Of a DNA stretch of 64,000 nucleotides, positions 2,955 to 36,017 are shown piece by piece (the first letter of the stretch is position 1; every line of letters begins with the position of its first letter). Location: the sequence record MZ234040.1, one strand, 5' to 3'. A program made the position numbers and the translations under genes. The DNA is from Escherichia phage vB_EcoM-G3G7. Under the pieces are notes generated by a model. That model ran no database searches and was not told the DNA's origin. It saw only the letters and a list, made by a program, of their open reading frames with translations.

Positions 2955-3983
2955 ATGTCATCAATACCTTGGATTGATAATGAGTTTGCGTATCGTGCAT
3001 TAGCTCATTTACCTAAATTCACACAAGTAAATAATAGTTCAACTTTTAAATTGCGGTTTAGATGCCCTGTTTGTGGAGATTCAAAAACCGACCAGAATAA
3101 AGCTCGTGGATGGTATTATGGTGATAATAATGAAGGAAATATTCATTGTTATAACTGTAACTATCATGCACCAATCGGAATATATCTAAAGGAGTTTGAA
3201 CCTGATTTATATCGTGAGTATATCTTTGAAATAAGAAAAGAAAAAGGTAAAAGTCGTCCAGTAGAAAAACCTAAAGAACTTCCTAAACAACCTGAGAAGA
3301 AAATAATTAAATCTCTTCCGTCATGCGTTAGATTAGATAAACTGGCGGAAGACCATCCAATTATAAAATACGTAAAAGCTCGTTGTATTCCAAAGGATAA
3401 ATGGAAATATCTTTGGTTTACAACTGAATGGCCTAAATTAGTTAATAGCATAGCACCGGGAACATACAAAAAGGAAATTTCTGAGCCTCGTCTTGTTATT
3501 CCAATTTATAATGCTAATGGAAAAGCTGAGTCTTTTCAAGGACGTGCATTAAAGAAAGATGCTCCTCAAAAATATATCACCATTAAAGCTTATCCTGAGG
3601 CAACAAAAATATATGGAGTCGAACGAGTTAAAGATGGCGATGTATATGTTCTAGAAGGACCTATAGATTCACTTTTTATTGAAAATGGTATAGCTATTAC
3701 GGGTGGTCAATTAGACCTAGAAGTTGTTCCATTTAAAGATAGACGAGTGTGGGTTTTAGATAATGAACCTCGTCACCCTGACACTATCAAGCGAATGACT
3801 AAATTAGTTGATGCAGGAGAAAGGGTTATGTTTTGGGATAAATCTCCCTGGAAATCAAAAGATGTTAATGATATGATTAGAAAGGAAGGTGCAACCCCTG
3901 AACAAATTATGGAATATATGAAAAATAATATTGCCCAGGGGTTGATGGCTAAAATGCGGTTATCTAAATATGCCAAGATTTAA
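2955..3983 (+). CDS. 61: DNA primase gp61
   Basis: 342 aa as in T4 gp61; N-terminal zinc-ribbon CPVCGDS...CYNC. Confidence 0.9.
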   Translation: MSSIPWIDNEFAYRALAHLPKFTQVNNSSTFKLRFRCPVCGDSKTDQNKARGWYYGDNNEGNIHCYNCNYHAPIGIYLKEFEPDLYREYIFEIRKEKGKSRPVEKPKELPKQPEKKIIKSLPSCVRLDKLAEDHPIIKYVKARCIPKDKWKYLWFTTEWPKLVNSIAPGTYKKEISEPRLVIPIYNANGKAESFQGRALKKDAPQKYITIKAYPEATKIYGVERVKDGDVYVLEGPIDSLFIENGIAITGGQLDLEVVPFKDRRVWVLDNEPRHPDTIKRMTKLVDAGERVMFWDKSPWKSKDVNDMIRKEGATPEQIMEYMKNNIAQGLMAKMRLSKYAKI

Positions 3984-4180
3984 ATTAACCCAACTAAAGC
4001 AAATGCTAGATCTACGAATGTATCAAGAGTAACTACTGGAATATTAATACCATGTGCAATTGCAATGGGTGATAAAATAAAGTTCCAGAGTAAAATTCCT
4101 ACCATAGCAGAAATAGTAAAAGCTATACGTTTTTTATTACCTTTTATGGCATCAACAAGTGCCATTAATTTTTGTGCCAT
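3980..4180 (-). CDS. Small hydrophobic (membrane) protein, convergent with gene 61
   Basis: 66 aa with two hydrophobic segments; strong SD AAGGAGG 5 nt upstream of ATG on the minus strand. Confidence 0.4.
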   Translation of the reverse strand: MAQKLMALVDAIKGNKKRIAFTISAMVGILLWNFILSPIAIAHGINIPVVTLDTFVDLAFALVGLI

Positions 4181-4224
4181 GTGTCCTCCTTTAAATTAAT
4201 ATTTATCACAAATTTCATAAATTT

Positions 4225-4254
4225 GTTTACTTTCTCAGCTTGTTATGGTATTAT
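4225..4254 (+). promoter_or_regulatory. T4-type early promoter
   Basis: GTTTAC 4225-4230, 18-nt spacer, TATTAT 4249-4254. Confidence 0.55.
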
Positions 4255-4279
4255 AAAATAAATTGCTGAGGATGATATA

Positions 4280-5619
<1,340 letters not shown>

Positions 5620-15886: not shown

Positions 15887-16057
15887 AGTTTAAAATTTTT
15901 TCATAAAACTATATACATCAGTAGTTGATTATGGTACTATATCAATATCAACTACTGATACAGAAAACAACTTGAAGAATAAAATGGATAATTCGTTAAA
16001 GGTGCGCTGATACTCTTCTGAAACGCATCGCTCCAATGTTCAATTAATGAGGAAATT

Positions 16058-17577: not shown

Positions 17578-19395
17578 ATGATTAAGAATGAAATTAAAAT
17601 TCTGAGCGATATTGAACATATCAAAAAGCGTAGCGGCATGTATATTGGCTCTTCTGCTAATGAAATGCATGAGCGCTTTCTGTTTGGTAAATGGGAAAGT
17701 GTTCAGTATGTACCTGGTCTTGTTAAGCTTATTGATGAAATTATCGATAACTCAGTAGATGAAGGTATTCGTACTAAGTTTAAATTCGCAAATAAAATTA
17801 ATGTTACTATTAAAAACAATCAAGTAACAGTTGAAGATAACGGTCGCGGTATTCCACAAGCGATGGTCAAAACACCTACCGGTGAAGAAATTCCTGGTCC
17901 TGTTGCTGCATGGACTATTCCAAAAGCAGGTGGTAACTTCGGTGATGATAAAGAACGCGTCACCGGTGGTATGAATGGTGTTGGTTCTAGTTTGACAAAC
18001 ATTTTTTCTGTGATGTTTGTCGGTGAAACTGGTGATGGTCAAAATAATATTGTAGTTCGTTGTTCAAATGGCATGGAAAATAAATCATGGGAAACTATTC
18101 CAGGAAAATGGAAAGGAACTCGCGTTACTTTCATTCCTGATTTTATGTCATTTGAAACTAATGAGCTGTCCCAAGTTTATCTTGACATTACACTAGATCG
18201 TCTCCAGACACTTGCAGTAGTTTATCCTGATATTCAATTTACCTTTAATGGTAAAAAGGTTCAGGGCAATTTTAAGAAATATGCACGCCAATATGATGAG
18301 CATGCTATCGTTCAAGAACAAGAAAATTGCTCTATTGCGGTTGGTCGTTCACCGGATGGTTTTCGTCAATTAACTTATGTGAATAACATTCACACTAAGA
18401 ATGGTGGCCATCACATTGACTGTGTTATGGATGATATTTGTGAAGACCTTATTCCACAAATCAAACGTAAGTTCAAAATTGATGTGACTAAAGCACGCGT
18501 TAAAGAATGTTTGACTATCGTTATGTTTGTCCGTGATATGAAAAACATGCGATTTGATTCTCAAACTAAAGAGCGTTTGACTTCTCCATTTGGTGAAATC
18601 CGTAGTCATATTCAACTTGATGCTAAAAAGATTTCACGTGCTATTCTAAATAATGAAGCAATTCTAATGCCGATTATTGAAGCTGCTTTGGCTCGTAAAT
18701 TAGCGGCAGAAAAAGCAGCAGAAACTAAAGCAGCTAAAAAGGCTTCTAAAGCTAAGGTTCATAAACATATTAAAGCGAATCTTTGTGGTAAAGATGCTGA
18801 TACTACTCTTTTCTTGACTGAGGGTGATTCGGCTATCGGATATCTTATTGATGTTCGTGATAAAGAACTTCACGGTGGTTATCCATTACGTGGTAAAGTT
18901 CTCAACAGTTGGGGTATGTCATATGCTGACATGCTTAAAAACAAAGAACTGTTTGATATTTGCGCAATCACTGGATTAGTTCTTGGTGAAAAAGCTGAAA
19001 ACTTGAATTATCATAATATTGCTATTATGACCGATGCTGACCATGATGGTCTAGGAAGCATTTATCCTTCTCTGCTCGGGTTTTTTAGTAATTGGCCAGA
19101 ATTGTTTGAGCAAGGACGAATTCGCTTTGTCAAAACTCCTGTAATCATCGCTCAGGTCGGTAAAAAACAAGAATGGTTTTATACAGTCGCTGAATATGAG
19201 AGTGCCAAAGATGCTCTACCTAAACATAGCATCCGTTATATTAAAGGACTTGGCTCTTTGGAAAAATCTGAATATCGTGAGATGATTCAAAACCCAGTAT
19301 ATGATGTTGTTAAACTTCCTGAGAACTGGAAAGAGCTTTTTGAAATGCTCATGGGAGATAATGCTGACCTTCGTAAAGAATGGATGAGCCAGTAG
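17578..19395 (+). CDS. 39: DNA topoisomerase II large subunit gp39 (GyrB-like ATPase), unsplit form covering T4 genes 39 plus 60
   Basis: 605 aa from ATG 17578; GHKL ATPase motifs; C-terminal TOPRIM-like region present in one ORF. Confidence 0.9.
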   Translation: MIKNEIKILSDIEHIKKRSGMYIGSSANEMHERFLFGKWESVQYVPGLVKLIDEIIDNSVDEGIRTKFKFANKINVTIKNNQVTVEDNGRGIPQAMVKTPTGEEIPGPVAAWTIPKAGGNFGDDKERVTGGMNGVGSSLTNIFSVMFVGETGDGQNNIVVRCSNGMENKSWETIPGKWKGTRVTFIPDFMSFETNELSQVYLDITLDRLQTLAVVYPDIQFTFNGKKVQGNFKKYARQYDEHAIVQEQENCSIAVGRSPDGFRQLTYVNNIHTKNGGHHIDCVMDDICEDLIPQIKRKFKIDVTKARVKECLTIVMFVRDMKNMRFDSQTKERLTSPFGEIRSHIQLDAKKISRAILNNEAILMPIIEAALARKLAAEKAAETKAAKKASKAKVHKHIKANLCGKDADTTLFLTEGDSAIGYLIDVRDKELHGGYPLRGKVLNSWGMSYADMLKNKELFDICAITGLVLGEKAENLNYHNIAIMTDADHDGLGSIYPSLLGFFSNWPELFEQGRIRFVKTPVIIAQVGKKQEWFYTVAEYESAKDALPKHSIRYIKGLGSLEKSEYREMIQNPVYDVVKLPENWKELFEMLMGDNADLRKEWMSQ

Positions 19396-30417: not shown

Positions 30418-30690
30418 ATGAATAAAAACATTGATACAGTTCGTGAAATTATTACTGTTGCATCTATTTTGATTAAATTTTCCAGAGAAGATATTGTTGA
30501 GAATCGTGCTAATTTTATTGCATTTCTTAATGAGATTGGAGTAACGCATGAAGGTAGAAAGTTAAATCAGAATTCATTTCGTAAAATTGTTTCTGAATTA
30601 ACTCAAGAAGATAAGAAAACCCTCATCGACGAATTCAACGAGGGTTTTGAGGGTGTATATCGATATCTAGAAATGTATACGAACAAATAA
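30418..30690 (+). CDS. asiA: Anti-sigma70 factor AsiA
   Basis: 90 aa as T4 AsiA. Confidence 0.85.
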   Translation: MNKNIDTVREIITVASILIKFSREDIVENRANFIAFLNEIGVTHEGRKLNQNSFRKIVSELTQEDKKTLIDEFNEGFEGVYRYLEMYTNK

Positions 30691-31347
30691 TTATTTAGCC
30701 CTTCCTAATATTCTGGCCGCCTGAGCACATATTGATTCAAGGCGGTCATTACTTATATGATCATTTCTATACCAGTACATGGTTATCGTTCCAGCATAGA
30801 TATTATCCAAATTAAAATATGGACAACTGTACATGTAGTTTATTTCGGGAGTAGGCTTTTTAGTTGGTAAAAAAGCAAATTTTGAGTCGGAATAATAATG
30901 ACGTCCATTTAAATGAACTGTATATTCATCCATAGTTTTATCAACAGGATATCCTCCAAGTGATTTTTCACTTATTGTTGAAGGTAATTTTCCTTCATAT
31001 GCTATAATATCAACAAAATAGTTTAAGTTTTTAGGGCGGAAAGAATACACCGCACTAAAGTCTGCCTCAGATGATATATGAACTATCTGGAGTTGTTCCA
31101 GGGCGACAGATTCAAAGCGTGCATTTCTTTCCTTTTCAATAATTTCACTGTATGTTTCATACTTTGATTGCTTATAGTACTCAAAGAAACTATCTCCCCT
31201 ATACCAAACAATCGCCATCATAAATAAAAGAATTACGACAGCTACCCGGGAAGCAAGAACTTTCCCGGTAGCGTTATCTTTGAACAAGCGATCTAGAACA
31301 CCAAATAGAATATCAGAGGGCGAAAATGATATTCTAGGTGCTGCCAT
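30691..31347 (-). CDS. t: Holin T
   Basis: 218 aa as T4 holin; single transmembrane segment; strong SD AAGGAGGG. Confidence 0.85.
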   Translation of the reverse strand: MAAPRISFSPSDILFGVLDRLFKDNATGKVLASRVAVVILLFMMAIVWYRGDSFFEYYKQSKYETYSEIIEKERNARFESVALEQLQIVHISSEADFSAVYSFRPKNLNYFVDIIAYEGKLPSTISEKSLGGYPVDKTMDEYTVHLNGRHYYSDSKFAFLPTKKPTPEINYMYSCPYFNLDNIYAGTITMYWYRNDHISNDRLESICAQAARILGRAK

Positions 31348-31378
31348 AGACCCTCCTTTTAGGGGTATTTATTCAAAA

Positions 31379-34718: not shown

Positions 34719-35335
34719 TCGCCACACACTCCACGGACCATTTACTCCGTTCCATGTAGCAGTCAAGGAACGAATATAAACATTTCCGTATCTAGTTGTA
34801 TATCTCTGAGTACCAGCAAATTGACCGGCCACAAATACTTCTAGCACACCTACAGCATTTTCTTCTGGAAATTTATTTGCTGGTTGAGCGTTGGTTGAAG
34901 TTGCTTTCGACCAAACTCCAAGATATTCTTCAACAGGCCCATACGTATCTAAATTAGCATCAGTAGGTAATTCGCCATTATTTTTTATAAATGTTGTGCT
35001 ATTGACATTTATGTCAGATGGAGTTAGCGTGATATCTTTTGACCCATCAAAGGATATACCATTAATTTTTCGTGCTGTTTTTAATTTCGTTGCAGTTGCA
35101 GCGTTACCTGTTAAATTTCCAATTATATTTCCATTAACAGTTAAAGAACCATCAATTGTTCCTCCATATTTTAAACCTAATTCTATAACACTACCTGAGT
35201 CATCTTTTGTGAAAATTGTTTTATCTTTTAAGTTTATAGCCAATTCACCTTCGGCTAATACTGAAGCTGCAGGACGTTGACCTGCAATTTTGCTTCTTTT
35301 AAATTGTATTTGTTTTAAAGTAGCCATAAGTCCTC

Positions 35336-35986
35336 TTAATAATAGCCGAAATCTTGAACAGAATCTTTAATTACGATTTGGTCAAATCGTGGAACGTGTG
35401 AAGGTTGAGATGCAGGATTCTGTGAAAAAAGGTTTGGCGCAGTTAAATTTCCTGTCATAGTGTCTCCAGAGCGTAATACCCTAGAGTTTGCATTTGCTGT
35501 AACAGTATTTATTGCTCCATCAACATAATCTTTGCGAGTAACATCAGATGCTGCGGAAGGAGTAGATGTAACAGTTACCGATGGAGCCGTTACAGCCCTG
35601 GTAAATGTTGTCAAACCTTCTGGCGTAATAGTAATTTGTCCAGTAGTGATTTCACTACCTGCTGGTCTAAAACTAATACCGCCAGAAGAGCCACCAACTA
35701 CAAGAGTATTACCAGTGCCGCCACCAGAACGAATTCGGATAGGGGTTTCATTATTACTTAATTGAAGATAACTATTTACCCCGTAATTAATAGTAATTGG
35801 ACCGGCGTAAGTACCACCATTAGCTTTAGAAACGAAATCGTTATCAGCTGCCTGCGGTTTATTATATTCTGAATATATTTTAAATGATTTGTAGAGTACA
35901 TCGTCACCGGCTGAATTCAATGGAAAATTTCCTTGATGCCAAATGACAGATCCACCCACAGTTGAACCTACTTTTAAATCAGCCAT
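35336..35986 (-). CDS. 36: Long tail fibre distal connector gp36
   Basis: 216 aa; position between genes 35 and 37. Confidence 0.8.
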
Positions 35987-36009
35987 TATATGCCCCTTTA
36001 TTTTAATAT

Positions 36010-36017
36010 TATTTATA
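36010..36017 (-). promoter_or_regulatory. Late promoter TATAAATA upstream of gene 36
   Basis: TATAAATA on the minus strand about 25 nt upstream of the gene 36 ATG. Confidence 0.5.

Follow-up and report, generated by a model that had tools for sequence, protein, structure and literature searches.

Among described phage membrane proteins, those closest to the one considered here are the class II holins, or pinholins, which cross the membrane with two full helices and end in a basic C-terminal tail in the cytoplasm, and two proteins of T4: the holin T, which has a large periplasmic domain, and Imm, which is the product of an early gene on the other strand. The locus in question lies in a 64,000-nucleotide stretch of Escherichia phage vB_EcoM-G3G7 (sequence record MZ234040.1; hereafter the window), where a hydrophobic open reading frame (ORF) of 66 amino acids begins with ATG and occupies positions 3980-4180 of the minus strand, beside the primase gene 61. 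A first-pass annotation of this DNA had proposed that the small ORF encodes a late-expressed membrane peptide, and the proposal is supported by a late-promoter-like box and a Shine-Dalgarno (SD) sequence, by purifying selection on the coding sequence and by a predicted transmembrane helix. The best explanation overall, to which we assign a probability of roughly 0.8 on the strength of sequence comparison, is that this is a genuine gene, transcribed late through the phage sigma factor gp55, with a small inner-membrane product.

The predicted product, MAQKLMALVDAIKGNKKRIAFTISAMVGILLWNFILSPIAIAHGINIPVVTLDTFVDLAFALVGLI, has a grand average of hydropathy of +1.22 with a 19-residue window maximum of 2.0, in keeping with the earlier description of a hydrophobic minus-strand ORF of 66 amino acids. 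Its stop codon had been described as abutting that of gene 61 (2955-3983, plus strand), and the contact is in fact an overlap, as the gene 61 stop at 3981-3983 and the small ORF stop, read from the complement of 3980-3982, have the TTAA at 3980-3983 in common. The region around the ORF is 100% identical to that of vB_EcoM-CHD2BS1 (MZ234027, genus Tequatrovirus), in which the ORF is labelled a hypothetical protein, and 95-99% identical to that of hundreds of T4-type phages. The length of the ORF alone is no evidence for a gene, because the minus strand inside gene 61 also contains chance ORFs of 67 and 101 codons. The shortness of the ORF and these chance ORFs of 67-101 codons nearby are what would be expected if it, too, had arisen by chance, in the untranslated 3' sequence or terminator of gene 61, and gave no protein.

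The distribution of the ORF argues against that explanation. The form found in the window, here called the A type, was detected by tblastn in 692 phage records, 685 of which cover at least 80% of the query. Matches to the small ORF at 80% identity or more occur in 502 records, against 501 records with a gp61 at least 95% identical, and the small ORF is thus essentially universal in Tequatrovirus. Copies in Mosigvirus and Gaprivervirus are 42-56% identical, and the ORF is open in nine genera in all, at 18-55% identity. The product matches phrog_2024 (E 4.3e-31, 107.5 bits) with residues 3-66 aligned to profile positions 2-65 of 65, which places it as a full member of this family, catalogued with function not assigned. 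Other members, for example QZI80274.1, VR25_031/032 and ASO78A_032, have the same place and orientation relative to gene 61. Wherever the gene is found it is convergent with gene 61, lying at the 3' end of that gene with 56 or dam on its other side. The four-nucleotide stop overlap recurs in T4, T6, Mosigvirus, Gaprivervirus VR25, JS98 and F48; the overlap with gene 61 measures 21-24 nucleotides (nt) in PM2 and IME523, and a small gap separates the two genes in CGG4-1 and UTI-K1.

Substitutions within the ORF are mostly synonymous, with Nei-Gojobori ratios of non-synonymous to synonymous rates (dN/dS, or omega) of 0.07-0.5. Between G2469 and ESCO47, both representing Mosigvirus, 31.5 synonymous and 16.5 non-synonymous substitutions give an omega of 0.09, and for the Mosigvirus pair G2469 and L017 the value is 0.07. 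Variable sites at first, second and third codon positions number 17, 3 and 36 in Mosigvirus and 9, 2 and 13 in Tequatrovirus, and the ratio of non-synonymous to synonymous proportions (pN/pS) was lowest in the ORF's own frame among the six frames in four of five comparisons. Residues W32, N33, P38 and P48 are the same in all types, and G44 is almost invariant. As there is no other coding overlap except for the 4 nt at the stop, the constraint belongs to the small ORF. The conservation of the frame thus indicates a real, conserved protein-coding gene of T4-type phages, one which, given its sequence features, very probably encodes a small protein of the inner membrane that is produced late.

Putative signals for translation and late transcription precede the ORF. 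An SD sequence, AAGGAGG, lies at 4185-4191 on the minus strand and is followed by the spacer ACAC and the ATG. The first-pass annotation had called this spacing ideal; the AAGGAGG does precede the ATG, but a 4-nt spacer is at the short end of the good range for E. coli ribosome-binding sites. The annotation had also placed a late-promoter-like sequence just upstream on the minus strand, and a box of this kind, GATAAATA, is present at 4200-4207 (minus strand), 19 nt before the ATG. Read from 4207 to 4198 the minus strand is GATAAATATT, which agrees with the T4 late consensus TATAAATA at seven of eight positions, the single mismatch being at the first position (-13). The minus-strand sequence upstream of the ORF is GTGATAAATATTAATTTAAAGGAGGACACATG, in which the order of signals is GATAAATA-TTAATTT-AAAGGAGG-ACAC-ATG. 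With the box at -13 to -6, late transcription is predicted to start at 4192-4194 on the minus strand and to give a leader of about 12-14 nt, in whose predicted fold the SD sequence and the AUG are unpaired. The annotation of MZ234027 also contains a 29-codon plus-strand ORF at 4172-4261 that overlaps the start, SD sequence and late box of the small ORF, and is probably a gene-finder artefact.

This combination of signals is rare in the window. Two AAGGAGG-N4-ATG motifs are present in the 64 kb, where 0.14 would be expected, and the composite ATAAATA-N4-12-AGGAG-N3-9-ATG is likewise found at two places (0.05 expected); each time the second site is that of the holin gene t. The only two ATAAATA-N-AAAGGAGG-N4-ATG sites in the 64 kb are likewise those of t (31345-31372, minus strand) and the small ORF (4178-4206, minus strand). 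Counted on both strands, VATAAATA, the late box with a non-T first base, has eight sites where shuffled sequences give 27 +/- 5, and the perfect TATAAATA has seven where 9.4 are expected. Given this depletion of VATAAATA and the excess of the composite over expectation, the succession of box, SD sequence and ATG is more than chance; and as the perfect box stays near expectation, the depletion suggests selection against stray late-promoter-like sequences. The window holds 15 NATAAATA sites, at least five of which stand 18-34 nt before a start codon, namely those of soc, the 245-codon ORF of the td intron (I-TevI), gene 34, t and the small ORF. A separate perfect TATAAATA at 36010-36017 (minus strand) is followed by ATGGCTGATTTAAAAGTAGG (MADLKVG...), which looks like the start of the tail-fibre gene 36. 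In MZ234027 a shorter coding sequence (CDS) is annotated there, 35209-35859, within window positions 35209-36017 (minus strand), and this may be a start-site misannotation.

The late-type box and the SD sequence have been kept across lineages in which the flanks have diverged, with at least five different flanking contexts. A NATAAATA box precedes the SD sequence in T4, T6-type phages, Mosigvirus, Gaprivervirus, Dhakavirus, Mosugukvirus and Jiaodavirus, and AGGAG(G) is kept in all genera examined. The boxes of the homologues read AATAAATA, CATAAATA or the perfect TATAAATA, the last of these in two genera, represented by Marfavirus F48 and Kanagawavirus IME523. The upstream sequence is GATAAATA-TTAATTTA-AAGGAGG in the window and in T4, AATAAATA-TATAAAGCAAT-AAGGAGG in T6-type phages, which are without dam, CATAAATA-AAAGA-AAGGAGG in Gaprivervirus and AATAAATA-ATAGGTAACT-AAGGAG in Mosigvirus. 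It is AATAAATA-TTAATTTAAC-AGGAGG in JS98, TATAAATA-CCTTTAAC-AGGAGG in F48, TATAAATA-TTGAAT-GGAGG in IME523, GATAAATA-CTACT-AGGAG in PM2, CATAAATA-GC-AGGAGG in UTI-K1 and, as a weaker match, TATTAAATA in CGG4-1.

A terminator-like hairpin with a T-run, found by pattern scan at 4146-4175 on the plus strand, that of gene 61, overlaps the 5' end of the ORF inside codons 2-12 and is marked as a terminator in MZ726795. This overlap, together with the absence of the ORF from the curated T4 annotation, would fit a chance ORF in a terminator region. The hairpin is weak (-8.6 kcal/mol, z -1.4), and none like it was found in Mosigvirus or Gaprivervirus, so that its role as the gene 61 terminator is tentative, and a constraint imposed by such a terminator on the 5' end of the ORF was considered and set aside on the same grounds. 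With the frame open across so many records and genera, under purifying selection and preceded by a conserved SD sequence and late box, a chance ORF is a highly improbable account of the locus.

The strand on which the ORF lies bears on when it could be expressed. In T4 the late box spans -13 to -6 and is centred on the position of the bacterial -10 element; in the compilation of Geiduschek and Kassavetis, 32 of 50 late sites are perfect and nine have A at -13, the other imperfect sites are mostly single deviations, and not all of the sites are proven active (PMC2988020). Variants at -13 are thus the commonest deviation among the listed T4 late promoters (PMC2988020). T4 early and middle transcripts have one polarity and late transcripts may have either (PMC2988020), and the small ORF runs against the direction of genes 41 to asiA, with the polarity unused by early and middle transcription, so that a gene on this strand can only be late. 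Late-only expression in this sense follows from established T4 biology rather than from data specific to the gene. The first-pass description of an otherwise single-strand region from gene 41 to asiA stands for nearly all genes but not entirely: from gene 41 (136-1563) to asiA (30418-30690), every CDS annotated in MZ234027 is on the plus strand except the small ORF and a 35-codon ORF. This second minus-strand ORF, at 15929-16036, lies between the motB-like and cef genes and is labelled 'hypothetical protein'. In the immediate setting, gene 41 is followed in plus-strand order by dmd, 61.4, sp, a 61.2-like ORF and 61.1, then gene 61, a 186-codon nuclease-like ORF (4280-4840), dam (4840-5619) and gene 56.

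The first-pass annotation had also named AlphaFold prediction as a check, and the predicted structure is in line with a membrane protein. AlphaFold2 was run on a 92-sequence family alignment and returned a model with a mean predicted local distance difference test score (pLDDT) of 87 and a predicted template modelling score (pTM) of 0.69, comprising an N-terminal amphipathic helix (residues 2-11), one long transmembrane helix of 28 residues (15-42) and a short C-terminal helix (52-63) joined to it by the loop HGINIPVVT. The N-terminal side is basic (K4, K13, K16, K17 and R18; KGNKKR) with a net charge of about +4, and the C-terminal side, with D53 and D57, has a net charge of -2; the positive-inside rule would place the basic N-terminus in the cytoplasm. 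With a hydrophobic moment of 0.40 the C-terminal helix is amphipathic, and at 12 residues it is too short for a second span. Hydropathy remains high through to the C-terminus, where the protein ends ...FVDLAFALVGLI, and there are no basic residues past position 18. Asparagine residues halfway along a transmembrane helix are classically known to drive the association of helices, and we infer that the invariant Trp-Asn pair, which lies mid-helix, and the two invariant prolines after it are a sign of a specific helix-helix contact, either with the protein itself or with a partner.

Taken as a whole, these features suggest the following course of events. RNA polymerase carrying the late sigma factor gp55, with gp33 and the gp45 clamp, would start from GATAAATA at 4200-4207 (minus strand) and produce a transcript with a very short leader carrying the strong SD sequence. 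The 66-residue product would insert into the inner membrane with its basic N-terminus (KGNKKR) remaining in the cytoplasm and one long transmembrane helix, at about residues 19-42, crossing the bilayer, while the short acidic or hydrophobic C-terminal helix (52-63) would lie on the periplasmic face or fold back into the bilayer. The protein may then act at the envelope through helix-helix contact, whether by self-association or with a membrane partner. The late transcript would also run antisense into the 3' end of the primase gene, as no terminator-like site was found by pattern scan on the minus strand between 3400 and 3980.

Several observations weigh against this reading. The curated T4 reference (NC_000866, AF158101) does not annotate the ORF; the annotators of MZ726795 searched for late promoters and marked none here; and the box departs from consensus at -13, where both the window and T4 have G. 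Constraint is looser in Gaprivervirus, with an omega of 0.3-0.7 and variable sites distributed 13/5/12 over the three codon positions. The topology is uncertain because of the 12-residue C-terminal helix. Finally, the Pfam, NCBIfam, PADLOC and Protein Data Bank (PDB) searches and the fold matches outside the family provide no link to a pathway. Scans of the A type and the second, B type (see below) found no Pfam family at E <= 1 and no NCBIfam family at E <= 10, and a PADLOC scan found none at E <= 1, so that Imm, Sp, holin and defence families are all without a match in these three collections, and the roles raised in the first-pass annotation, in lysis, superinfection exclusion or defence, gain no family match; a profile search of PDB sequences gave one chance match (E 1.5). 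Foldseek searches with the AlphaFold2 model returned family members only from BFVD, with all other matches at E > 4, and a best match of E 5.5 from PDB, to ELIC-type channels; neither result is informative.

The antisense course of the transcript raises the question of whether the locus works mainly as RNA, with a late antisense transcript from GATAAATA silencing or interfering with the primase gene and the ORF being incidental or tuning RNA stability. The lack of a terminator-like site between 3400 and 3980, the tight convergent overlap with gene 61 that is kept across genera, and the transcription of both T4 strands at several sites and at different times (PMC2988020) are all compatible with such a function. 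An RNA of this kind would not account for amino-acid constraint with omega down to 0.07-0.09 and codon-position periodicity, for invariant residues that persist where synonymous sites are saturated, for a strong SD sequence that is kept everywhere, or for tandem paralogues that stay intact as ORFs. We therefore regard a primarily RNA-level function as quite unlikely; an RNA-level effect on primase may exist alongside the protein, and cannot explain the protein-level constraint.

A membrane protein with these signals invites comparison with lysis genes. The layout of promoter, SD sequence and ATG is matched in the window only by that of the holin gene t, and on this pointer a role in lysis timing, lysis inhibition or membrane integrity can be put forward as a guess, one that we consider rather unlikely to be correct. 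More specifically, and with greater doubt, the product could be a late-envelope component made together with holin T under near-identical signals, tuning lysis or the membrane through an Asn-mediated helix contact, in which case the gene would have been overlooked because the T4 reference genome lacks an annotation of it. In a weaker variant, the transcript may also shut down primase by antisense pairing.

The product might instead itself be a holin or pinholin-like lysis protein, as it is small, hydrophobic and probably late, has a box-SD-ATG layout in common only with t in the window, and is named 'Holin' in one UniRef entry (A0A482MZV5). Holin families are among those without a match in Pfam (E <= 1) and NCBIfam (E <= 10), and Foldseek matches named holin outside the family all have E > 8. 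The protein has a single predicted full-length transmembrane helix and ends ...ALVGLI, lacking a charged hydrophilic C-terminal tail. T4 lysis, moreover, is already explained by t, e and the spanins. The name in UniRef was rejected as a lone automatic label, all other listed members read from the named clusters being 'hypothetical protein', and identity as a holin appears improbable.

The first-pass annotation had also raised the possibility that the small ORF belongs to the same inserted segment as the nuclease-like ORF. On that account the small ORF, the 186-codon ORF at 4280-4840 (plus strand) and dam would form one mobile or inserted cassette. The small ORF does adjoin this PD-(D/E)XK-like ORF, which is found in part of the Tequatrovirus records, and 145 of 503 records cover at least 80% of positions 3700-5000. 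T4, however, has lost the nuclease-like ORF through a 548-bp deletion and keeps the small ORF. The deletion corresponds to window positions 4213-4760 and lies between 8-bp direct repeats, ATCACAAA, at 4205-4212 and 4753-4760; it stops right at the late box, which is intact, removes the early promoter of the nuclease-like ORF, and leaves, just in front of dam, a remnant of the 186-codon ORF made up of roughly its last 25 codons (NC_000866 about 17,626-17,720). T6-type phages, Mosigvirus, Gaprivervirus, Dhakavirus and others likewise keep the small ORF and are without the nuclease-like ORF and dam. The idea of a common insertion is thus refuted by T4, T6 and eight other genera, in which the small ORF is present and the nuclease-like ORF is not, and a shared cassette is scarcely credible. 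Since T4 and T6-type phages lack the nuclease-like ORF and yet keep the small ORF, the latter is older than, and independent of, the variable segment.

The 186-codon ORF itself is a member of phrog_8706 with a PD-(D/E)XK-like motif, FDIVIS...EIKHQ. It has weak matches to DpnII in Pfam (E 0.0045, below cutoff) and to a type II restriction endonuclease in PADLOC (E 9e-5), and its stop codon overlaps the dam start as TAATG. From the motif, the weak matches and the overlap with dam, it looks like a restriction-enzyme-like gene coupled to a GATC methylase. As the T4 deletion removed the nuclease-like ORF and left a remnant before dam, T4 dam may be the orphaned half of a former nuclease/methylase pair.

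Outside Tequatrovirus the family comprises further types, all of which match phrog_2024. The eight further genera examined are seven Tevenvirinae and Marfavirus, and the B and C types occur in Gaprivervirus, some Mosigvirus, Dhakavirus, Marfavirus, Kanagawavirus, Mosugukvirus, Gelderlandvirus and Jiaodavirus. The B type begins MGTLFYQIWKL... and matches the profile at E 1e-20 to 1e-27. A and B stand in tandem, in that order, in Gaprivervirus VR25 (L004 1495-1901); B precedes A in Mosigvirus ESCO47 (L021 999-1392), where the two overlap as ATGCTTAA; and the B copy has decayed to remnants in TH40 and P896 (L006, L022). B is the sole copy in Dhakavirus JS98, Marfavirus F48, Kanagawavirus IME523, Mosugukvirus PM2 and Gelderlandvirus CGG4-1, and Jiaodavirus UTI-K1 has a third type (hidden Markov model (HMM) E 1e-11). 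These arrangements indicate that the family evolved by tandem duplication and loss at a fixed site. No family member was found beside the primase gene in Krischvirus LF73P4, Klebsiella phage RCIP0006 or Winklervirus CBH8, and an HMM search of the six-frame translation of the whole window found no second family copy. A scan of IMG/VR yielded 10 loci, all in the same groups. A phmmer search against 1.84 billion representatives gave nine matches, consisting of family members and three long hydrophobic or repetitive proteins, the latter being taken as composition artefacts and not as remote homologues. In T6 (NC_054907; L007 1495-1695) the start codon is TTG instead of ATG (ATATTG), and the RefSeq CDS begins at Met6. 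The RefSeq name there, 'putative head morphogenesis protein', was rejected as a similarity transfer without support, since the same annotation calls dCTPase similar to ferredoxin.

The T4 copy is intact at 17738-17938 of NC_000866, on the late (clockwise) strand, and sits in the 310-bp stretch between dam and gene 61 that the reference shows as empty. The exact T4 protein sequence occurs only in assemblies of sequencing runs (Logan) and is absent from the NCBI and UniRef protein sets. The existence of the gene is not new, as hundreds of records already list it as a 'hypothetical protein' and the family has its entry as phrog_2024, and a small late phage membrane protein is an ordinary kind of element, with no sign of a new kind of system. 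A full-text search of the literature on T4 (ribosome profiling, small or unannotated ORFs, antisense transcription, late promoters and the dam-61 region) found nothing on this ORF; a T4 dRNA-seq preprint reports 150 phage transcription start sites (bioRxiv 10.1101/2024.04.04.588121). T4 is the reference for its whole phage family, and the gap in its annotation holds a gene under purifying selection, which essentially every Tequatrovirus carries and which is widespread among related T4-type genera, most of them Tevenvirinae. Genome-wide screens and omics analyses built on the T4 reference annotation miss this gene, and should its product have a part in lysis control or in the function of the envelope, a pathway that has been studied in depth would include a component not yet listed. 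The gene should enter the T4 annotation; the practical result is modest.

Finally, the predicted protein can be set against the known systems named at the outset. It resembles Imm and similar proteins of the T-even phages as a small, helical and, by prediction, inner-membrane protein with no enzymatic domain; no sequence relation to Imm was found, there being no Pfam match of any kind. To the class II holins or pinholins, such as S68 of phage 21, it is alike in size (60-70 amino acids), in its hydrophobic helices and in its predicted late expression; unlike them, it is basic at the N-terminus, is predicted to combine one full helix with a C-terminal helix of 12 residues, and has no tail. T, at 218 amino acids against 66, shows no similarity to it in sequence or fold in the family and fold searches. 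The resemblance to t lies in the expression signals, which for t are AATAAATA-CCCCT-AAAAGGAGG-GTCT-ATG and, like those of the small ORF, consist of a variant box on the late strand, an SD sequence, four bases and the ATG, the 4-nt spacer being common to both. These shared signals suggest a similar timing and strength of expression for the two genes, and not a shared function.

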